A stretch of DNA of 64,000 nt, taken from assembly GCF_053078305.1 (NCBI RefSeq), contig NZ_CP166879.1; one strand, written 5' to 3'. A program made the position numbers and the translations under genes. Below are positions 47,142 through 60,224 of the stretch, piece after piece (within the stretch, counting starts at the first letter, position 1; each line of letters begins with the position of its first letter). Under the pieces are notes generated by a model. It made no database searches and was not told where the DNA came from. It saw only the letters and a program-made list of their open reading frames with translations.

Positions 47142-47250
47142 TTCATTACCTGTTACATTCTAAATAATCTCAGACAGATATTATCTCCGTGAATCCCCCG
47201 CCACCTTTCCGGTGCGCGGGGTTTTGTCTTTTTTCACCGGGAATACATGT

Positions 47251-48123
47251 ATGAATCCGTCTGATGCCATTGAGGCAATTGAAAAACCGCTCTCCTCCCT
47301 GCCTTACTCACTTTCCCGTCACATCCTGGAACATCTGCGCAAACTCACCAGCCACGAACCCGTGATTGGCATTATGGGGAAAAGCGGGGCCGGTAAATCC
47401 TCACTCTGTAATGCACTGTTTCAGGGGGAGGTCACCCCGGTCAGTGATGTTCACGCCGGCACCCGGGAAGTGCGGCGCTTCCGTCTGAGTGGCCATGGTC
47501 ACAACATGGTTATCACTGACCTGCCCGGGGTGGGTGAGAGCCGGGACAGGGATGCAGAGTATGAAGCCCTGTACCGTGACATTCTGCCTGAACTTGACCT
47601 GGTGCTGTGGCTGATTAAAGCCGATGACCGTGCCATGTCTGTGGATGAGTATTTCTGGCGACACATCCTGCACCAGGGACATCAGCAGGTGCTGTTTGTG
47701 GTGACACAGGCCGACAAAACGGAGCCCTGCCATGAATGGGATATGGCCGGTATTCAGCCTTCTCCCGCACAGGCACAGAATATTCGCGAAAAAACGGAGG
47801 CGGTATTCCGTCTGTTCCGGCCCGTACATCCGGTTGTGGCCGTATCGGCCCGCACCGGCTGGGAACTGGATACGCTGGTCAGTGCGCTCATGACAGCGCT
47901 TCCCGACCATGCCGCCAGTCCCCTGATGACCCGCCTGCAGGACGAGCTGCGCACGGAATCTGTCCGCTCTCAGGCCCGTGAACAGTTTACCGGTGCGGTG
48001 GACCGGATATTTGACACGGCGGAGAGCGTCTGTGTTGCCTCTGTTGCCCGTACGGTTCTGCGTGCCGTCCGTGACACGGTGGTCTCTGTTGCCCGCGCTG
48101 TATGGAACTGGATTTTCTTCTGA
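47251..48123 (+). CDS. yeeP: YeeP/YkfA/YfjP-family GTPase (50S ribosome-binding GTPase-like), about 290 aa
   Basis: P-loop GKSGAGKSSL, DLPG motif; conserved position upstream of agn43 in CP4-44-like modules. Start set at the first in-frame ATG with a plausible context. Confidence 0.7.
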   Translation: MNPSDAIEAIEKPLSSLPYSLSRHILEHLRKLTSHEPVIGIMGKSGAGKSSLCNALFQGEVTPVSDVHAGTREVRRFRLSGHGHNMVITDLPGVGESRDRDAEYEALYRDILPELDLVLWLIKADDRAMSVDEYFWRHILHQGHQQVLFVVTQADKTEPCHEWDMAGIQPSPAQAQNIREKTEAVFRLFRPVHPVVAVSARTGWELDTLVSALMTALPDHAASPLMTRLQDELRTESVRSQAREQFTGAVDRIFDTAESVCVASVARTVLRAVRDTVVSVARAVWNWIFF

Positions 48124-48241
48124 ACACTCTGCCAGGAAAATGCCTGATTACATTGCGTTAACCAACTGAAAACATGACACAAACACCTCATGCTCCTCCT
48201 GTTTCTCTTGCGTGACCGCCTTGCAATCAATAGAATAAAAC

Positions 48242-48277
48242 GATCGATAAAACAGATATCGATCGTTACTATCGATC
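48242..48277. promoter_or_regulatory. Three closely spaced GATC (Dam) sites in the agn43 upstream region: candidate OxyR/Dam phase-variation switch
   Basis: GATC at 48242, 48261 and 48274 within cgatcgataaaacagatatcgatcgttactatcgatcgtt, about 220 bp upstream of the agn43 ATG. Confidence 0.65.
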
Positions 48278-48494
48278 GTTTATAGTGGTTAATGGTCTGC
48301 GAAAAGGCAGTTGAATCTCTTCATCATGCAGAACGGAATTGCACAAAACGGACTGATACTTCTCTGGCGGATGAGAGAGGGGAAGCATTTATGTCCGGGA
48401 AAAACCACTGTATCTGACCATGCTGTTTTGTACCTGCCGGTATCCACATTTGTGGGTACCGGCTTTTTTATTCACCCTCTGTAAGGAAAAGCTG

Positions 48495-51400
48495 ATGAAA
48501 CGACATCTGAACACCAGCTACAGGCTGGTATGGAATCACATTACGGGCACCCTGGTGGTGGCCTCCGAACTGGCCCGCTCACGGGGAAAACGCGCCGGTG
48601 TGGCGGTTGCTCTGTCTCTTGCTACTGTCACGTCAGTCCCGGCACTGGCTGCTGACACGGTTGTTCAGGCAGGAGAAACCGTGAATGGCGGAACACTGGT
48701 AAACCATGACAACCAGTTTGTATCCGGAACAGCTGATGGCGTGACTGTCAGTACCGGGCTTGAGCTGGGGCCGGACAGTGACGAAAACACCGGCGGGCAA
48801 TGGATAAAAGCGGGTGGCACAGGCAGAAACACCACTGTCACCGCAAATGGTCGTCAGATTGTGCAGGCAGGAGGAACTGCCAGTGATACGGTTATTCGTG
48901 ACGGCGGGGGACAGAGCCTGAACGGGCTGGCGGTGAACACCACGCTGAATAACAGAGGCGAGCAGTGGGTTCATGAGGGCGGGGTTGCCACCGGTACAAT
49001 TATCAACCGCGACGGTTACCAGAGCGTTAAAAGTGGCGGGCTGGCAACAGGAACCATCATCAACACCGGCGCAGAAGGCGGCCCGGATTCTGACAACTCG
49101 TACACGGGTCAGAAGGTCCAGGGAACAGCAGAATCCACCACCATCAACAAAAATGGACGGCAGATTATCTTATTTTCCGGGATAGCCCGTGACACTCTCA
49201 TTTACGCAGGTGGTGACCAGTCGGTACACGGAAGGGCCCTGAATACCACACTGAATGGCGGTTACCAGTATGTGCACAAGGACGGACTTGCGCTGAACAC
49301 GGTAATTAACGAGGGGGGCTGGCAGGTTGTTAAGGCAGGTGGTGCTGTCGGTAACACCACCATAAATCAGAACGGTGAACTGAGAGTACATGCCGGCGGG
49401 GAAGCAACTGCAGTCACCCAGAACACGGGCGGTGCACTGGTTACCAGTACGGCTGCAACCGTTACCGGCATAAACCGCCTGGGAGCATTCTCCGTTGTGG
49501 CGGGTAAGGCTGATAATGTCGTACTGGAAAATGGCGGACGTCTGGATGTGCTGAGCGGACACACAGCCACTAATACCCGTGTGGATGATGGCGGAACGCT
49601 GGATGTCCGCAACGGTGGTGCCGCCACCACCGTATCCATGGGGAATGGCGGTGTACTGCTGGCCGATTCCGGGGCCGCTGTCAGTGGTACCCGGAGCGAC
49701 GGAAAGGCATTCAGTATCGGAGGCGGTCAGGCGGATGCCCTGATGCTGGAAAAAGGCAGTTCCTTCACACTGAACGCCGGTGATACGGCCACGGATACCA
49801 CGGTAAATGGCGGACTGTTCACCGCCAGAGGGGGCTCGCTGGCGGGCACCACCACGCTGAATAACGGTGCCACGCTTACCCTTTCCGGGAAAACGGTGAA
49901 TAACGATACCCTGACCATCCATGAAGGTGATGCACTCCTGCAGGGAGGCGCTCTTACCGGTAACGGCAGGGTGGAAAAATCAGGAAGTGGCACACTCACT
50001 GTCAGCAACACCACACTCATCCAGAAAACCGTCAACCTGAATGAAGGCACGCTGACGCTGAACGACAGTACCGTCACCACGGATGTCATCGCTCAGCGCG
50101 GCACGGCCCTGAAGCTGACCGGCAGCACAGTGCTGAACGGTGCCATTGACCCCACGAATGTCACCCTGACATCCGGTGCCACCTGGAATATCCCCGATAA
50201 CGCCACGGTGCAGTCGGTGGTGGATGACCTCAGCCATGCCGGACAGATTCATTTCACCTCCACCCGCACAGGGAAGTTCGTACCGGCAACCCTGAAAGTG
50301 AAAAACCTGAACGGGCAGAATGGCACCATCAGCCTGCGTGTACGCCCGGATATGGCACAGAACAATGCTGACAGACTGGTCATTGACGGCGGCAGGGCAA
50401 CCGGAAAAACCATCCTGAACATGGTGAACGCCGGCAACAGTGCGTCGGGGCTGGCGACCAGCGGTAAGGGTATTCAGGTGGTGGAAGCCATTAACGGTGC
50501 CACCACGGAGGAAGGGGCCTTTGTCCAGGGGAACAGGCTGCAGGCCGGGGCCTTTAACTACTCCCTCAACCGGGACAGTGATGAGAGCTGGTATCTGCGC
50601 AGTGAAAATGCTTATCGTGCAGAAGTCCCCCTGTATGCCTCCATGCTGACACAGGCAATGGACTATGACCGGATTCTGGCAGGCTCCCGCAGCCATCAGA
50701 CCGGTGTAAACGGTGAAAATAACAGCGTCCGTCTCAGCATTCAGGGCGGCCATCTCGGTCACGATAACAACGGCGGTATTGTCCGTGGGGCCACGCCGGA
50801 AAGCAGCGGCAGCTATGGCTTCGTCCGCCTGGAGGGTGACCTGCTGAGAACAGAGGTTGCCGGTATGTCTCTGACGACAGGGGTGTATGGTGCTGCAGGC
50901 CATTCTTCCGTTGATGTTAAGAATGATGACGGCTCCCGTGCCGGCACGGTCCGGGATGATGCCGGCAGTCTGGGCGGATACCTGAATCTGGTACACAACG
51001 CCTCCGGCCTGTGGGCTGACATTGTGGCCCAGGGAACCCGCCACAGCATGAAAGCGTCATCGGACAATAACGACTTCCGCGCCCGGGGCTGGGGCTGGCT
51101 GGGCTCACTGGAAACCGGTCTGCCCTTCAGTATCACTGACAATCTGATGCTGGAGCCGCAACTGCAGTACACCTGGCAGGGACTCTCCCTGGATGACGGC
51201 CAGGATAACGCCGGTTATGTGAAGTTCGGGCATGGCAGTGCACAACATGTGCGTGCCGGTTTCCGTCTGGGCAGCCACAACGATATGACCTTTGGTGAAG
51301 GCACCTCATCCCGTGACACCCTGCGCGGCAGTGCCAAACACAGTGTGCGTGAACTGCCGGTGAACTGGTGGGTACAGCCTTCTGTTATCCGCACCTTCAG

Positions 51401-51617
51401 CTCCCGGGGGGACATGAGCATGGGTACAGCCGCAGCCGGCAGTAACATGACGTTCTCACCGTCACAGAATGGTACGTCACTGGACCTGCAGGCCGGACTG
51501 GAAGCCCGTGTCCGGGAAAATATCACCCTGGGCGTTCAGGCTGGTTATGTCCACAGCGTCAGCGGCAGCAGCGCTGAAGGCTATAACGGTCAGGCCACGC
51601 TGAATGTGACCTTCTGA
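48495..51617 (+). CDS. flu: Antigen 43 autotransporter adhesin, about 1040 aa
   Basis: N-terminus MKRHLNTSYRLVWNHITGTLVVASELARSRG (extended signal peptide), passenger repeats, C-terminal beta-barrel ending ...NVTF. Confidence 0.85.
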   Translation: MKRHLNTSYRLVWNHITGTLVVASELARSRGKRAGVAVALSLATVTSVPALAADTVVQAGETVNGGTLVNHDNQFVSGTADGVTVSTGLELGPDSDENTGGQWIKAGGTGRNTTVTANGRQIVQAGGTASDTVIRDGGGQSLNGLAVNTTLNNRGEQWVHEGGVATGTIINRDGYQSVKSGGLATGTIINTGAEGGPDSDNSYTGQKVQGTAESTTINKNGRQIILFSGIARDTLIYAGGDQSVHGRALNTTLNGGYQYVHKDGLALNTVINEGGWQVVKAGGAVGNTTINQNGELRVHAGGEATAVTQNTGGALVTSTAATVTGINRLGAFSVVAGKADNVVLENGGRLDVLSGHTATNTRVDDGGTLDVRNGGAATTVSMGNGGVLLADSGAAVSGTRSDGKAFSIGGGQADALMLEKGSSFTLNAGDTATDTTVNGGLFTARGGSLAGTTTLNNGATLTLSGKTVNNDTLTIHEGDALLQGGALTGNGRVEKSGSGTLTVSNTTLIQKTVNLNEGTLTLNDSTVTTDVIAQRGTALKLTGSTVLNGAIDPTNVTLTSGATWNIPDNATVQSVVDDLSHAGQIHFTSTRTGKFVPATLKVKNLNGQNGTISLRVRPDMAQNNADRLVIDGGRATGKTILNMVNAGNSASGLATSGKGIQVVEAINGATTEEGAFVQGNRLQAGAFNYSLNRDSDESWYLRSENAYRAEVPLYASMLTQAMDYDRILAGSRSHQTGVNGENNSVRLSIQGGHLGHDNNGGIVRGATPESSGSYGFVRLEGDLLRTEVAGMSLTTGVYGAAGHSSVDVKNDDGSRAGTVRDDAGSLGGYLNLVHNASGLWADIVAQGTRHSMKASSDNNDFRARGWGWLGSLETGLPFSITDNLMLEPQLQYTWQGLSLDDGQDNAGYVKFGHGSAQHVRAGFRLGSHNDMTFGEGTSSRDTLRGSAKHSVRELPVNWWVQPSVIRTFSSRGDMSMGTAAAGSNMTFSPSQNGTSLDLQAGLEARVRENITLGVQAGYVHSVSGSSAEGYNGQATLNVTF

Positions 51618-51737
51618 CAGAACCATCGCCTCTCTGTGGTCCCGGTCATCATGATCGGGACCCGGACCGGCGCAACGGATATTCAACGCCACATTCGCTG
51701 GCATTAACAATAACATGATATTCATCACGGAGTGACT

Positions 51738-54254
51738 ATGTTACAGATAGTCGGCGCGCTGATCCTGCTGATCGCAGGATTTGCCATTCTTCGCCTTTTG
51801 TTCAGAGCATTAATCAGCACGGCTTCTGCGCTGGCAGGGCTCATATTGCTGTGTCTGTTCGGCCCGGCCTTACTGGCTGGCTATATCACCGAACGCATAA
51901 CCCGGTTGTTCCATATTCGCTGGCTGGCAGGCGTATTTCTGACGATTGCCGGAATGATCATCAGCTTCATGTGGGGACTTGATGGTAAACATATCGCGCT
52001 GGAGGCTCACACCTTTGACTCTGTGAAATTTATTCTGACCACCGCTCTCGCCGGTGGTCTGCTGGCTGTTCCCCTGCAGATCAAAAACATTCAGCAGAAC
52101 GGGATCACACCAGAAGATATCAGCAAGGAAATTAACGGGTATTACTGCTGTTTTTATACTGCCTTTTTCCTTATGGCGTGTTCTGCATGCGCACCATTGA
52201 TCGCGTTACAGTACGATATTTCACCGTCACTGATGTGGTGGGGCGGGTTGTTGTACTGGCTGGCTGCATTAGTGACGCTGCTATGGGCGGCCAGCCAGAT
52301 CCAGGCGCTGAAAAAACTGACCTGTGCCATCAGCCAGACACTGGAAGAACAACCGGTGCTCAACAGTAAATCGTGGCTGACCAGTTTGCAAAACGATTAC
52401 AGCCTTCCTGACTCACTGACGGAGCGCATCTGGCTGACGCTCATTTCACAACGGATTTCCCGGGGAGAGCTGAGGGAATTTGAACTGGCAGACGGAAACT
52501 GGTTACTGAACAATGCCTGGTATGAAAGAAACATGGCAGGGTTTAACGAACAGTTGAAAGAGAACCTGTCATTCACACCTGATGAACTGAAAACGCTCTT
52601 CCGGAACCGCCTGAATTTATCACCGGAAGCGAATGACGATTTTCTCGATCGTTGCCTGGACGGCGGTGACTGGTATCCCTTTTCAGAAGGTCGCCGTTTT
52701 GTATCATTCCATCACGTGGATGAGCTTCGTATCTGTGCCTCCTGCGGGCTGACAGAAGTACATCATGCCCCGGAAAATCATAAGCCGGATCCGGAATGGT
52801 ACTGCTCCTCTCTTTGTCGCGAAACAGAAACACTGTGTCAGGAAATTTATGAACGCCCTTACAACAGCTTTATTTCCGATGCAACGGCGAATGGTCTGAT
52901 TCTCATGAAACTGCCGGAAACCTGGAGTACAAATGAGAAAATGTTTGCTTCCGGAGGGCAGGGACATGGGTTTGCCGCTGAACGGGGAAACCATATTGTC
53001 GACAGAGTCCGTCTGAAAAACGCACGGATCCTCGGTGATAATAATGCCAGAAATGGAGCAGACAGACTGGTCAGCGGAACAGAAATCCAGACGAAATATT
53101 GTTCAACTGCAGCCCGTAGCGTCGGTGCGGCATTCGACGGACAAAACGGACAGTATCGTTACATGGGAAATAATGGCCCCATGCAACTGGAAGTCCCCCG
53201 TGATCAGTATGCCGGCGCTGTTGAAACCATGAGGAATAAGATCCGCGAAGGTAAAGTACCCGGTGTAACCGATCCCGCAGAAGCGTCCCGGCTGATTCGT
53301 CGGGGACATCTGACTTATACTCAGGCCCGTAATATCACCCGGTTCGGGACCATCGAATCGGTCACTTATGATATTGCCGAGGGGTCGGTTGTCAGTCTGG
53401 CGGCCGGAGGGATCAGTTTTGCCCTGACGGCATCGGTCTTCTGGCTCAGCACCGGCGAGCGCGATGCTGCCCTGCAGACAGCTGCTGTCCAGGCAGGAAA
53501 AACCTTCACCCGCACACTGGCTGTCTACGTCACAACCCAGCAACTCCACCGGCTCAGTGTTGTTCAGGGTATGCTGAAGCACATTGATTTTTCGACTGCC
53601 AGCCCGACTGTCCGACTGGCTCTTCAGAAGGGGACCGGTGCAGGAAATATCAGTGCCCTGAACAAAGTGATGAAGGGTACGCTGGTGACATCTCTGGCAC
53701 TGGTAGCTGTCACAACCGGCCCTGACATGATCAAAATGTTGCGGGGACGGATCTCCGGTACGCAGTTCATCAGGAATCTTGCCGTGGCATCTTCCGGTGT
53801 GGCAGGTGGAGCTGTCGGGTCAGTGGCGGGCGGGATACTGTTCAGTCCACTGGGACCATTTGGTGCACTGACAGGGCGTGTGGTTGGCGGTGTTCTGGGG
53901 GGAATGATTGCCTCCGCTGTATCAGGAAAAATTGCCGGAGCGCTGGTTGAAGAAGATCGCGTCAAAATTCTGGCAATGATTCAGGAGCAGGTGACATGGC
54001 TTGCCGGCAGTTTCCTGCTGACCGGACATGAGATTGAAAATCTGAACGAGAATCTGGCCCGTGTTATCGATCAGAATGCTCTGGAGATCATTTTCGCCGC
54101 CGGTATACAACAACGGGCCGCGACCAATATGTTAATCAAACCACTGGTGGTCAGTATCATCAGGCAACGCCCCGTCATGGAATATGATGCATCCCATCTC
54201 GGCAATATGGTTAACCGACTGGAAGAAGCATTACCCCCGGAGTTACCGGCATAA
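51738..54254 (+). CDS. YeeR-like inner-membrane protein (long form, about 838 aa)
   Basis: Several N-terminal TM helices; position after agn43 as in CP4-44-like modules; GGAG 6 nt before the ATG at 51738. Confidence 0.55.
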   Translation: MLQIVGALILLIAGFAILRLLFRALISTASALAGLILLCLFGPALLAGYITERITRLFHIRWLAGVFLTIAGMIISFMWGLDGKHIALEAHTFDSVKFILTTALAGGLLAVPLQIKNIQQNGITPEDISKEINGYYCCFYTAFFLMACSACAPLIALQYDISPSLMWWGGLLYWLAALVTLLWAASQIQALKKLTCAISQTLEEQPVLNSKSWLTSLQNDYSLPDSLTERIWLTLISQRISRGELREFELADGNWLLNNAWYERNMAGFNEQLKENLSFTPDELKTLFRNRLNLSPEANDDFLDRCLDGGDWYPFSEGRRFVSFHHVDELRICASCGLTEVHHAPENHKPDPEWYCSSLCRETETLCQEIYERPYNSFISDATANGLILMKLPETWSTNEKMFASGGQGHGFAAERGNHIVDRVRLKNARILGDNNARNGADRLVSGTEIQTKYCSTAARSVGAAFDGQNGQYRYMGNNGPMQLEVPRDQYAGAVETMRNKIREGKVPGVTDPAEASRLIRRGHLTYTQARNITRFGTIESVTYDIAEGSVVSLAAGGISFALTASVFWLSTGERDAALQTAAVQAGKTFTRTLAVYVTTQQLHRLSVVQGMLKHIDFSTASPTVRLALQKGTGAGNISALNKVMKGTLVTSLALVAVTTGPDMIKMLRGRISGTQFIRNLAVASSGVAGGAVGSVAGGILFSPLGPFGALTGRVVGGVLGGMIASAVSGKIAGALVEEDRVKILAMIQEQVTWLAGSFLLTGHEIENLNENLARVIDQNALEIIFAAGIQQRAATNMLIKPLVVSIIRQRPVMEYDASHLGNMVNRLEEALPPELPA

Positions 54255-54785: not shown

Positions 54786-54810
54786 TCCCTGAAGTCAGTT
54801 TCATGCTTCA

Positions 54811-54846
54811 GCCTCTGTCACAACGCGTGGCAGAGGCTTTTTATTT
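54811..54846 (+). terminator. Rho-independent terminator
   Basis: Hairpin gcctctg-(loop)-cagaggc followed by TTTTTATTTA. Confidence 0.65.
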
Positions 54847-55097: not shown

Positions 55098-55196
55098 ACG
55101 TCATTCATTTCACCCATCAGGCCGCGTCTTCTCCGGGAGACGTGGCTTTTTCATTTATTACACCAGTAAATCTTAACCACCGATAAGGAGCAAATT

Positions 55197-56570: not shown

Positions 56571-57047
56571 ATGCAACAGCTTTCCTTTCTGCCCGGAGAG
56601 ATGACGCCCGGCGAGCGCAGCCTCATTCAACGGGCCCTGAAAACCCTGGACCGCCATCTTCATGAACCCGGCGTGGCCTTCACCTCCACCCGTGCGGCAC
56701 GAGAATGGCTGATTCTGAACATGGCGGGACTGGAGCGTGAAGAGTTCCGGGTGCTGTATCTGAACAACCAGAATCAGCTGATTGCCGGTGAAACCCTCTT
56801 CACCGGCACCATCAACCGCACGGAAGTCCATCCCCGTGAAGTGATTAAACGCGCCCTGTATCACAATGCCGCTGCTGTGGTGCTGGCACACAATCACCCG
56901 TCCGGTGAAGTCACACCCAGCAAGGCAGACCGCCTTATCACGGAACGTCTGGTACAGGCACTGGGCCTGGTGGATATCCGGGTGCCGGACCATCTGATAG
57001 TCGGTGGCAGCCAGGTTTTCTCCTTTGCCGAACATGGTCTGCTTTAA
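56571..57047 (+). CDS. RadC-like JAB-domain protein (YeeS/YkfG/YfjY-like), about 158 aa
   Basis: JAMM motif region (HNHPSGEVTPSKAD); start set at MQQLSF. Confidence 0.7.
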   Translation: MQQLSFLPGEMTPGERSLIQRALKTLDRHLHEPGVAFTSTRAAREWLILNMAGLEREEFRVLYLNNQNQLIAGETLFTGTINRTEVHPREVIKRALYHNAAAVVLAHNHPSGEVTPSKADRLITERLVQALGLVDIRVPDHLIVGGSQVFSFAEHGLL

Positions 57048-57109
57048 CCCGTCACAACCACATCACACCTGTTTTCACTTTTATCTTCTGTCTTCAGAGG
57101 TATCCCACT

Positions 57110-57331
57110 ATGAAAATCATCACCCGTGGCGAAGCCATGCGTATTCACCGTCAGCATCCGGCATCCCGTCTTTTTCCGTTCTGTACCGGCAAATACCGCT
57201 GGCACGGCAGTGCTGAAGCGTATACCGGTCGTGAAGTGCAGGATATTCCCGGTGTGCTGGCCGTGTTTGCAGAACGCCGTAAGGACAGTTTTGGTCCGTA
57301 TGTCCGGCTGATGAGCGTCACCCTGAACTGA
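57110..57331 (+). CDS. YeeT/YkfH-like protein (DUF987), 73 aa
   Basis: Conserved small ORF preceding the antitoxin gene. Confidence 0.6.
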   Translation: MKIITRGEAMRIHRQHPASRLFPFCTGKYRWHGSAEAYTGREVQDIPGVLAVFAERRKDSFGPYVRLMSVTLN

Positions 57332-57493
57332 TGTTCCGTCACCCGGAAAACGAGTACGACTGGCTGAGCTCAGACGCCGCTGTGGATGAGGTCCTGCTCA
57401 TCAACGAATACACCTTTACCGAAGCCGGTCTGCGCGCCGGCTGACCCGTCATCGTTAAACTATCATTCACCGATTTTCTGTGAGGATTTTATC

Positions 57494-57862
57494 GTGTCAG
57501 ACACACTTTCCGGGACAACGCATCCCGATGACAATGACGACCATCCCTGGTGGGGACTACCCTGCACAGTGACGCCCTGTTTCGGCGCCCGTCTGGTGCA
57601 GGAGGGTAACCGCCTGCATTACCTTGCCGACCGCGCCGGTATCAGAGGCCTGTTCAGCGATGCAGATGCGTACCACCTGGACCAGGCCTTTCCGCTGCTG
57701 ATGAAACAACTGGAACTCATGCTCACCAGCGGTGAACTGAATCCCCGCCATCAGCATACCGTCACGCTGTATGCAAAAGGTCTGACCTGCAAAGCTGACA
57801 CTCTCGGTAGCGGTGGTTACGTTTATCTGGCTGTTTATCCGACGCCCGAAACGAAAAAGTAA
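57494..57862 (+). CDS. cbeA: CbeA/YeeU-family type IV antitoxin, about 122 aa (GTG start)
   Basis: [43 protein letters not shown]... matches recalled YeeU; the track ORF is an upstream extension. Confidence 0.8.
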
Positions 57863-57951
57863 ACCACCGGAATAACCTTCTGCTCCGGCCTGGTGCTTTC
57901 ACCACGCCACTTTTCCATTTTTCATCTCTGCATATCAGGAAAACCTTCAGT

Positions 57952-58326
57952 ATGAAAACATTACCCGATACACACGTACGGGAGGCATCGAGCTGCCCGT
58001 CTCCCGTCACCATCTGGCAGACTCTGCTCTCCCGACTACTGGGCCAGCATTACGGCCTTACACTGAATGACACACCGTTCGCCGATGAACGTGTGATTGA
58101 GCAGCATATTGAAGCTGGCATTTCACTGTGTGATGCGGTGAATTTTCTCGTGGAAAAATACGCGCTGGTGCGTACCGACCAGCCGGGATTCAGCACTTGT
58201 CCCCGCTCTCAGTTAATAAACAGTATTGATATCCTCCGGGCTCGCAGGGCGACCGGCCTGATGACCCGCGACAATTACAGAACGGTAAATAACATTACCC
58301 TGGGTAAGCATCCGGAGAAACGATGA
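57952..58326 (+). CDS. cbtA: CbtA/YeeV-family type IV toxin (cytoskeleton-targeting), 124 aa
   Basis: Matches recalled YeeV sequence (…[41 protein letters not shown]…). Confidence 0.8.
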
Positions 58327-58811
58327 AACTTTCCCTGATGCTGGAAGCCGACAGAATTAATGTGCAGGCACTGAACATGGGGCGAATTGTCGTTGACGTC
58401 GATGGTGTTAATCTCACTGAACTGATTAACAAGGTCGCTGAAAACGGTTATTCACTCCGCGTGGTGGAGGAATCCGACCAACAGTCAACCTGCACACTAC
58501 CACCGTTTGCAACCCTTGCCGGCATACGCTGCAGTACCGCACATATCACGGAAAAGGATAACGCCTGGCTGTACTCGCTGTCGCATCAGACCAGTGACGT
58601 TGGTGAATCAGAATGGATTCATTTCACAGGTAGCGGATATCTGTTACGTACCGATGCGTGGTCATATCCGGTTCTGCGGCTTAAACGCCTGGGGCTGTCA
58701 AAAACGTTCCGTCGTCTGGTTATCACACTTACCCGACGTTATGGCGTCAGTCTCATTCATCTGGATGCCAGCGCTGAATGCCTGCCGGGTTTACCCACTT
58801 TCAACTGGTAA
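58323..58811 (+). CDS. YeeW-like hypothetical protein, 162 aa
   Basis: ATG overlaps the cbtA stop (ATGA); conserved position. Confidence 0.45.
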
Positions 58812-58822
58812 CCAGGAACAAC

Positions 58823-59020
58823 ATGAAATCATTAACCACGGAAACAGCACTGGATATTCTGATTGCGTGGCTGCAGGACAATATCGACTGCGAATCGGGA
58901 ATTATCTTTGACAACGATGAGGATAAAACGGATTCGGCAGCACTGCTGCCCTGCATTGAACAGGCGAGGGAGGATATCCATACCCTGCGCCAGGTGCAGC
59001 TTCTGCACCAGAACCAGTGA
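58823..59020 (+). CDS. Hypothetical small protein, about 65 aa
   Basis: ORF from MKSLTTETALD; the track's longer form starts in the previous gene. Confidence 0.3.
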   Translation: MKSLTTETALDILIAWLQDNIDCESGIIFDNDEDKTDSAALLPCIEQAREDIHTLRQVQLLHQNQ

Positions 59021-59104
59021 ATATTACTCACCATACTTCATTCCACTGACGCCAGCCTGAACAGGGCTGGCGTTTTCATTTATCTGCAAAAAGGAATATC
59101 GATT

Positions 59105-59953
59105 ATGTCTGAACTCACAGCCTCCCGTCCGGAAGTGGTCAACGGACATACGGACGTTATCTGCTCAACCTCAGTCAGCCACATTCTGGCTGTACGAAAG
59201 AGTACACTGTTGCAAATCGACATACTTATCCGGCAACTGGCTGAAATCTCAGCAATGACAGAAAGTATTGGCGGTAAAACTGCTCTGGACTGGGCCATGA
59301 AACAGGATTTTCGCTGCGGCTGCTGGCTGACTGAGAAACCGGAAACCGCAATGAAAGCCATTACCCGCAACCTTGACCGTGAAATCTGGCGTGACCTGAT
59401 GCAACGTTCCGGGATGCTGTCATTAATGGATGCACAGGCACGTGATACATGGTACCGGTCACTGGAGTACGATAATTTTCCGGAAATCAGCGAAGCGAAC
59501 ATTCTGGGCACGTTTGAACAACTGCATCAGAATAAAGATGAGGTGTTTGAGCGAGGAGTCATCAACGTCTTCAGGGGACTGAGCTGGAATTACAAAACCA
59601 ACTCCCCCTGTAAATTTGGCAGTAAAATTATCGTCAACAACCTGGTGAGGTGGGACAGATGGGGATTGCATCTTATCACCGGGCAACAGGCAGATCGACT
59701 CGCCGACCTGGAAAGAATGCTACACCTGTTCAGCGGCAAACCGATCCCCGACAGCCGGGAAAATATCATCATTCGGCTGGATGATCACATCCGCTCCGTT
59801 CAGGGCAAAGTGTGCTATGAAGATGAGATGTTCAACATCAGATACTTTAAGAAGGGCTCCGCACACATCACGTTCAGGAAACCAGAACTGGTTGATCGGC
59901 TAAATGATATTATTGCGAAACATTATGCGGGAAAAGTATCTTCTTCAGTATAG
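59105..59953 (+). CDS. Hypothetical protein, 282 aa (DUF4942-like, recalled as a common island-terminal gene)
   Basis: Long ORF; last island gene before the ulaE junction. Confidence 0.5.
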   Translation: MSELTASRPEVVNGHTDVICSTSVSHILAVRKSTLLQIDILIRQLAEISAMTESIGGKTALDWAMKQDFRCGCWLTEKPETAMKAITRNLDREIWRDLMQRSGMLSLMDAQARDTWYRSLEYDNFPEISEANILGTFEQLHQNKDEVFERGVINVFRGLSWNYKTNSPCKFGSKIIVNNLVRWDRWGLHLITGQQADRLADLERMLHLFSGKPIPDSRENIIIRLDDHIRSVQGKVCYEDEMFNIRYFKKGSAHITFRKPELVDRLNDIIAKHYAGKVSSSV

Positions 59954-60162
59954 ACTTATATATCACAGGTATTGTGTCTCGTCCGGAACAAGACAGGTAG
60001 GTATGCTGCATTCACTGAACCATTACAGAGAATATTTCAACAGAGTTCAATATACCTCCATGTATAACAACTACACCTTGGGGGCTATATTGGGGGCTAT
60101 TTATAGGGAGGTGTTTAAATATATACTTATTATTCAATAATATAGGTTGATTAAGTTCATCC

Positions 60163-60215
60163 CCGGCGGGGAGCGCTTTTTCATAGATGCCAAGCGGGAT
60201 TTGTTTGGACAACAT
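60163..60215 (-). pseudogene. ulaE: ulaE 5' fragment (first 18 codons: MLSKQIPLGIYEKALPAG) truncated by the island junction
   Basis: Starts 10 bp after the ulaD stop; matches the recalled UlaE N-terminus, then diverges into island sequence. Confidence 0.6.
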
Positions 60216-60224
60216 ATCCGCTCC

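Follow-up and report, generated by a model that had tools for sequence, protein, structure and literature searches.

Layout of the Locus and Identity of the Genes

The window analyzed here, i.e., the whole stretch of DNA of 64,000 nt, carries a module of three genes at positions 57494-58811 (1318 bp), all of them on the + strand. The coordinates assigned to the three ORFs in a preliminary description of this DNA proved exact against the ORF list and the raw sequence. In addition, the DNA of strain GPEC1176, which is identical to the window over 57000-60200, shows 100% identity across the module, and the RefSeq CDS boundaries in that strain are exactly those of the three genes. The locus comprises the following features:

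57482..57486, + strand: Shine-Dalgarno-like GAGGA, 7 nt before the antitoxin GTG (from the sequence; kept in K-12 and AF14)
57494..57862, + strand: cbeA/yeeU-type antitoxin gene, 122 aa, GTG start (PF06154, E 4.7e-53; RefSeq WP_001315620.1)
57863..57951, + strand: cbeA-cbtA intergenic spacer, 89 nt (alignment of window, K-12 and AF14)
57952..58326, + strand: cbtA/yeeV-type toxin gene, 124 aa, ATG start (PF06755, E 9.6e-62; RefSeq WP_000854753.1)
58323..58326, + strand: ATGA start/stop junction of cbtA and the DUF5983 gene, of the translational-coupling type, with GGAG 6 nt upstream (from the sequence)
58323..58811, + strand: DUF5983 (YeeW-type) gene, 162 aa, with an N-terminal and a conserved C-terminal domain (PF25638, PF19419)

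The Pfam matches of the three proteins lie far above the gathering scores. The antitoxin matched PF06154 (CbeA_antitoxin) with 178.4 bits against a cut-off of 27, over profile positions 1-100 of 101, and the toxin matched the full profile (1-112) of PF06755 (CbtA_toxin) with 206.4 bits against a cut-off of 25. Both domains of the third protein were also recovered, namely DUF5983_N (PF25638; 98.9 bits, E 1.2e-28) and DUF5983 (PF19419; 76.7 bits, E 1.7e-21), the cut-off being 27 in each case. In an alignment with the three paralogous loci of K-12, the antitoxin was found to be 92.6% identical to CbeA and 60-66% identical to YafW/YfjZ, while the toxin was 87.9% identical to CbtA and 58-63% identical to YkfI/YpjF. 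K-12 YeeW aligns with the DUF5983 protein of the window over 62 residues, with 63% identity. The preliminary description had read the first two genes as a cbeA/cbtA (yeeU/yeeV)-type pair and had named alignment to K-12 yeeU, yeeV and yeeW as the check; the Pfam matches and this alignment bear out that reading, the closest K-12 sequences being the CP4-44 copies.

Other resources added little to these assignments. No NCBIfam model matched the three proteins, PADLOC returned no defense-system match for any gene of the array, and in PHROGs only families of unknown function were matched. No RNA family of Rfam was found in or beside the module, the sole match being IS102/IsrC upstream of agn43. It is very likely that the locus is an intact CbeA/CbtA (YeeU/YeeV) type IV module of E. 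coli integrative islands, followed by a full-length DUF5983 (YeeW) gene whose start overlaps the toxin stop, with a mechanism assigned by homology. Such a module is already known and already annotated under these names in RefSeq.

The Antitoxin and Toxin Genes

The antitoxin gene is located directly upstream of the CbtA-family toxin gene, in the same + orientation. Its product matched the solved YeeU structure PDB 2H28 over residues 1-121 (E 3.7e-76); for the toxin no solved structure was found. The GTG start, which had already been proposed for the antitoxin, is preceded by GAGGA at 57482-57486, and the start context ...TATCGTGTCAGA is common to the window, K-12 cbeA and strain AF14. Since K-12 cbeA and AF14 begin identically, the GTG start is the norm in this family. 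No sigma-70 consensus promoter was detected just upstream of cbeA, and neither convincing repeats nor a sigma-70 promoter were found at the module. Among seven intact copies, dN/dS was 0.24 (median) for the antitoxin gene and 0.25 for the toxin gene.

The spacer between cbeA and cbtA (57863-57951) deserves a separate comment. Its mean column identity across the window, K-12 and AF14 is about 96%, its conservation is no lower than that of the adjoining coding DNA, and in the paralogous pairs it measures only 20 nt. A spacer of 88 bases has been reported for K-12 cbeA-cbtA (PMC5371832). The spacer of the window gave no Rfam match.

The toxin was compared with a set of 12 toxins, i.e., ten alleles from the fetched loci together with K-12 YkfI and YpjF. 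Phe65, within the segment DAVNF65LVEKY, is kept in the window toxin and in all 12 aligned toxins. In K-12 CbtA, replacement of this residue (F65S) abolishes FtsZ binding, and Phe65 is needed for that binding in CbtA, YpjF and YkfI (PMC5624674). Position 15 is occupied by Cys in the window and by Arg in K-12 CbtA. Two N-terminal haplotypes could in fact be distinguished, the K-12 type (VLPGQAASSR15) and the window type ending in Cys15. The latter is common in the CbtA clade, and Cys15 is also present in YpjF, YkfI and four other alleles of the CbtA clade.

In K-12 CbtA the substitution R15C abolishes MreB binding (PMC5624674). We therefore considered whether Cys15 might mark a toxin that has lost MreB binding and acts on division only, and rejected this idea because Cys15 is the common state among these proteins and, in the same study, YpjF still bound MreB despite its Cys15. 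The reverse change C15R was without effect in YpjF or YkfI (PMC5624674). MreB binding by the Cys15 allele of the window is putative, and Cys15 is no argument against membership of the CbtA family.

The DUF5983 Gene

The third gene had been described earlier as a yeeW-like ORF of 162 aa whose start overlaps the toxin stop as ATGA, and both points hold. At 58321-58326 the sequence reads CG-ATG-A, so that start and stop overlap by 4 nt, and the yeeW-like identity follows from the two DUF5983 domains and the alignment with K-12 YeeW. The K-12 protein is a truncation of 64 aa compared with the 162 aa of the full-length protein in the window. Seven of the ten loci compared, among them relatives at 54% and 63% identity, have a 4-nt overlap between cbtA and the DUF5983 gene, and in two further loci the overlap is 1 nt; a GGAG(G) motif lies upstream of the DUF5983 start. 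In the protein alignment, H74, D79, G105, S126 and W162 were invariant, and W98, P116 and R130 nearly so. The median dN/dS (0.24, seven intact copies) equals that of the antitoxin gene. DUF5983 is a real gene under purifying selection, with a conserved 4-nt overlap.

The same gene is dispensable and often decaying. Of 11 copies compared, three are truncated or contain internal stops. K-12 has the 64-aa stub, the AF14 copy has an internal stop, and the copy of L020 is interrupted. An exhaustive search among 1.84 billion proteins yielded only 218 cluster representatives, many of them fragments. No solved structural relative of DUF5983 was found, and our search of the literature retrieved no function for YeeW/DUF5983. 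The adjacency of CbtA and DUF5983 across almost all sequence types has been reported in an automated survey (PMC10790755), and a DUF5983 gene directly after cbtA has also been described in a 2026 preprint (10.64898/2026.06.09.728211).

Distant relatives of DUF5983 were found in a variety of contexts. A relative consisting of the C-terminal domain only (L011) follows cbeA-cbtA with a 4-nt overlap. Others occur without CbtA: one overlaps a DUF3085 gene by 4 nt (L023), another overlaps a DUF1281 gene by 4 nt beside ArdC and a relaxase (L025/L026), one follows LPD29 beside TraM/TraY/TraA (L009), and two adjoin DUF932 with a relaxase or RepA (L022 and L007). Relatives of the C-terminal domain also occur in lytic phages. 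A single-protein scan of viral contigs returned only 7 loci. Because distant relatives occur without CbtA, DUF5983 is a general gene of mobile elements that recurs beside transfer genes rather than a dedicated partner of CbtA.

These observations bear on the possibility that the module is a three-component system, in which DUF5983 would be a partner of the toxin (a second antidote, a modulator or a co-effector) produced in a fixed ratio through translational coupling. In nine of ten loci, down to 54% identity, the DUF5983 start overlaps the stop codon of cbtA as ATGA or by 1 nt, which is consistent with this idea, as are a dN/dS of DUF5983 equal to that of the toxin-antitoxin genes and the adjacency noted across almost all sequence types (PMC10790755). 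However, K-12 has only the yeeW stub, yet CbtA toxicity and rescue by CbeA work there and with cloned genes. Moreover, the gene is broken in three of 11 copies, and its C-domain relatives are found without CbtA on plasmids/ICEs and in lytic phages. We thus regard a three-component system as improbable. The same low expectation applies to DUF5983 as a working third component of the module that would be translationally coupled to CbtA, with a fold without solved relative and the conserved residues His74, Asp79, Trp98, Arg130 and Trp162, modulating the toxin or acting on the host, and, more broadly, as a coupled partner of various upstream genes (CbtA, DUF3085 and DUF1281) in mobile-element arrays beside transfer genes.

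The preprint mentioned above (10.64898/2026.06.09.728211) also proposes that a programmed frameshift leads from DUF5983 into the next ORF. At 58787-58793 the window has a heptamer G_GGT_TTA whose phase would allow a -1 slip into the ORF of DUF957. The heptamer is absent from two of eight loci, and in two others the frame relation is +1 and not -1. Furthermore, DUF957 is never without an AGGA and an ATG of its own. The frameshift is therefore disfavored and finds no support as a conserved feature.

Genomic Context and Island Structure

The module belongs to a larger block, in which the following features surround it:

47212-48123: yeeP-like GTPase gene
48240-48476: IS102/IsrC small RNA (Rfam, 74.7 bits)
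48420-51617: agn43, 87% identical to K-12 Flu
51732-54254: gene for an 840-aa YeeR-type protein, 100% identical to K-12 YeeR over YeeR residues 1-507
57110..57331, + strand: DUF987 (YeeT-type) gene, the block member directly upstream (PF06174, 1.5e-40; RefSeq WP_000692345.1)
57332..57493, + strand: spacer with the 3' remnant of a DUF8835 gene (blastn to the AF14 locus L002; frame-3 translation ...ENEYDWLSSDAAVDEVLLINEYTFTEAGLRAG followed by a stop)
58823..59020, + strand: DUF957-type gene, 65 aa, with its own AGGA ribosome-binding site, the last gene before the hairpin (RefSeq WP_021552429.1)
59048..59074, + strand: terminator-like GC-rich hairpin and T-run, a possible end of the transcription unit (from a consensus scan)
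59954-60224: right island junction

Between YeeR and the module, the gene order is IrmA, DUF905, DUF932, an antirestriction gene, RadC/YeeS and DUF987/YeeT, and downstream of the module lie the DUF957 gene, the hairpin, a DUF4942 gene and then ulaD on the other strand. The placement of the pair in a conserved yeeP-agn43-yeeR...yeeV block, as stated in the preliminary description, agrees with this arrangement, the GTPase, agn43, YeeR, RadC/YeeS and DUF987/YeeT all being found upstream. The IsrC match runs into the agn43 ORF as listed, and the arrangement is that of isrC-flu in K-12. As the 840-aa protein of the window is 100% identical to K-12 YeeR over residues 1-507, the K-12 protein (510 aa) is a truncation. 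In K-12, CP4-44 has lost the YeeR C-terminus, IrmA, DUF905, DUF932, the antirestriction genes, most of yeeW and DUF4942.

The 162-nt spacer upstream of cbeA retains the last ~36 codons of the DUF8835 gene and intergenic DNA, approximately 550 bp having been deleted in the window. At the same position, the gene is intact (645 bp) in AF14 and many other strains. An in-frame ATG at 57386, which extends the cbeA ORF to 158 aa, stems from this remnant.

Losses of this kind raise the question of whether the module itself is decaying and no longer functions, as a leftover of a cryptic element. The neighboring DUF8835 gene is largely deleted, and yeeW and flanking genes are degraded in K-12 and other copies. 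However, the three ORFs of the window are full length with ribosome-binding sites and have a dN/dS of approximately 0.24, and many unrelated strains have the module with 100% identity, all of which makes a dead remnant very improbable. The identity and integrity of the genes, the purifying selection acting on them and the conserved junctions between them are established.

Strong terminator-like hairpins were detected at 54810-54838, 55119-55148 and 59048-59074, i.e., after the IrmA, DUF905 and DUF957 genes, and no terminator-like site with more than four G-C pairs was found between 55148 and 59048. As hairpins bracket the eight genes from DUF932 to DUF957, this run, which includes the toxin-antitoxin pair, may form one transcription unit. 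The last gene of this run, DUF957, has a dN/dS of ~0.20, and its product gave no Pfam match.

The composition of the array also allows a reading in which the genes from DUF932 to DUF4942 are cargo of a conjugative element, derived from its early-expressed "leading region". According to this reading, the toxin-antitoxin pair and DUF5983 would act at entry or establishment, e.g., by arresting division transiently, rather than during steady-state maintenance. DUF932, Antirestrict, RadC, DUF987, DUF4942 and DUF5983 do recur on plasmid/ICE contigs beside oriT-proximal TraM/TraY/TraA, relaxases, ArdC and RepA, and in the window the genes are co-oriented and tightly packed, with terminator-like hairpins only at the ends of the array. 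On the other hand, all of this is evidence from context, the window carries no transfer genes near the module, and we found no literature linking CbtA to leading regions. A leading-region origin is in our view rather unlikely.

The island carries an integrase, and the module is located towards its distal end. In GPEC1176 this island (integrase to DUF4942) is located between ulaE and ulaD and splits the ascorbate operon (L021 and L001), parting ulaE and ulaF from the rest of ulaABCDEF by about 60 kb. No tRNA gene was found in the 64,000-nt window, and the insertion site is therefore not the usual tRNA site.

Distribution and Possible Role in Island Maintenance

The 1318-bp module was found 100% identical, with the same annotation, in many complete E. 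coli genomes, including those of O26 and O103. Related modules are present in 4953 of 5426 complete genomes (about nine in ten). Genomes having any carry a median of 3 related copies and a maximum of 14, almost all of them chromosomal, and four such places exist in the genome identical to the window. The same variation in copy number was observed in a published survey (PMC10790755). Few accessory gene sets of E. coli are as common, which makes the module ordinary, and its presence has little significance beyond correct annotation.

The preliminary description had closed with the view that the island has an addiction-type module of its own. The copy number is relevant to the question of whether the module stabilizes its island by post-segregational killing, i.e., as an addiction module in which loss of the island removes the antitoxin and residual toxin kills the cell. 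Toxin-antitoxin modules on other mobile elements act in this way (background in PMC5371832), and the position near the distal end of an integrase-bearing island would be compatible with such a role. However, Wen et al. 2017 (PMC5371832) report that deletion of the three type IV antitoxin genes is tolerated, that neither toxin nor antitoxin regulates its own operon, and that each of CbeA, YafW and YfjZ neutralizes all three toxins. The copy numbers, with a median of 3 and a maximum of 14 per genome and four places in the window-identical genome, point in the same direction: since most genomes hold several copies and the antitoxins cross-neutralize, losing one island would usually leave cross-protecting antitoxins behind. 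We know of no differential stability of antitoxin and toxin in the CbeA/CbtA family. While the module is a toxin-antitoxin pair by family, killing upon island loss is an unlikely explanation, and a stabilizing role is unlikely to be its main function.

Proposed Mechanism

The preferred reading remains that of a type IV module acting on the cytoskeleton. In K-12, CbtA binds FtsZ and MreB directly and independently, and the protein remains toxic unless both interactions are disrupted (PMC5624674). K-12 CbeA does not bind the toxin. Its interaction partners are FtsZ and MreB, whose polymers it protects or stabilizes, and this mode of action defines type IV (summarized in PMC5371832). By homology, the toxin of the window would bind FtsZ, and probably MreB, and would thereby block cell division and elongation. 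Given its 92.6% identity to K-12 CbeA, the antitoxin may neutralize the toxin at these polymers of the cytoskeleton and not by sequestering it. The cbeA, cbtA and DUF5983 genes lie within the co-oriented array DUF932, antirestriction, RadC, DUF987, cbeA, cbtA, DUF5983 and DUF957, and they may be co-transcribed.

Toxicity, its targets, the mode of neutralization and co-transcription are thus features that we infer from the sequence. A distant CbtA from Erwinia binds neither FtsZ nor MreB (PMC6521040), and for this reason the target cannot be read from the name of the family alone. At 88% identity within the same host species, the functional prediction is strong.

Comparison With Known Systems and Implications

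The founding type IV toxin-antitoxin system is CbeA/CbtA (YeeU/YeeV) of K-12 CP4-44. The locus of the window shares with it the gene order, the GTG start of cbeA, a spacer of ~88-89 nt and the ATGA between cbtA and yeeW, as well as flanking yeeR, yeeS, yeeT and agn43, with the identities of 92.6 and 87.9% already mentioned. In contrast to CP4-44, the window is fuller, with a YeeR of 840 instead of 510 aa and a YeeW of 162 instead of 64 aa, and it has IrmA, DUF905, DUF932, antirestriction genes, DUF957 and DUF4942. Furthermore, segment 6-23 of its toxin represents the other haplotype, with Cys15 in place of Arg15.

YafW/YkfI (CP4-6) and YfjZ/YpjF (CP4-57) belong to the same two Pfam families, have RadC and DUF987 upstream, and their toxins carry Phe65 and Cys15. 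They differ from the window in identity (58-66%), in a spacer of 20 nt and in their shorter proteins (105 and 109-113 aa), and no DUF5983 is annotated downstream of them in K-12. Within the DUF5983 family (PF25638 and PF19419; "Aec77", "CP4-44 prophage protein YeeW"), the copy of the window has no distinguishing feature.

The locus shows the undeleted form of a block that is truncated in K-12 CP4-44, with full YeeR, full YeeW and DUF957/DUF4942. As a consequence, the function of YeeW/DUF5983 is better addressed with this locus than with K-12. Finally, its toxin is a natural Cys15 variant of the CbtA clade and offers a ready test of the K-12 R15/MreB determinant in natural alleles.
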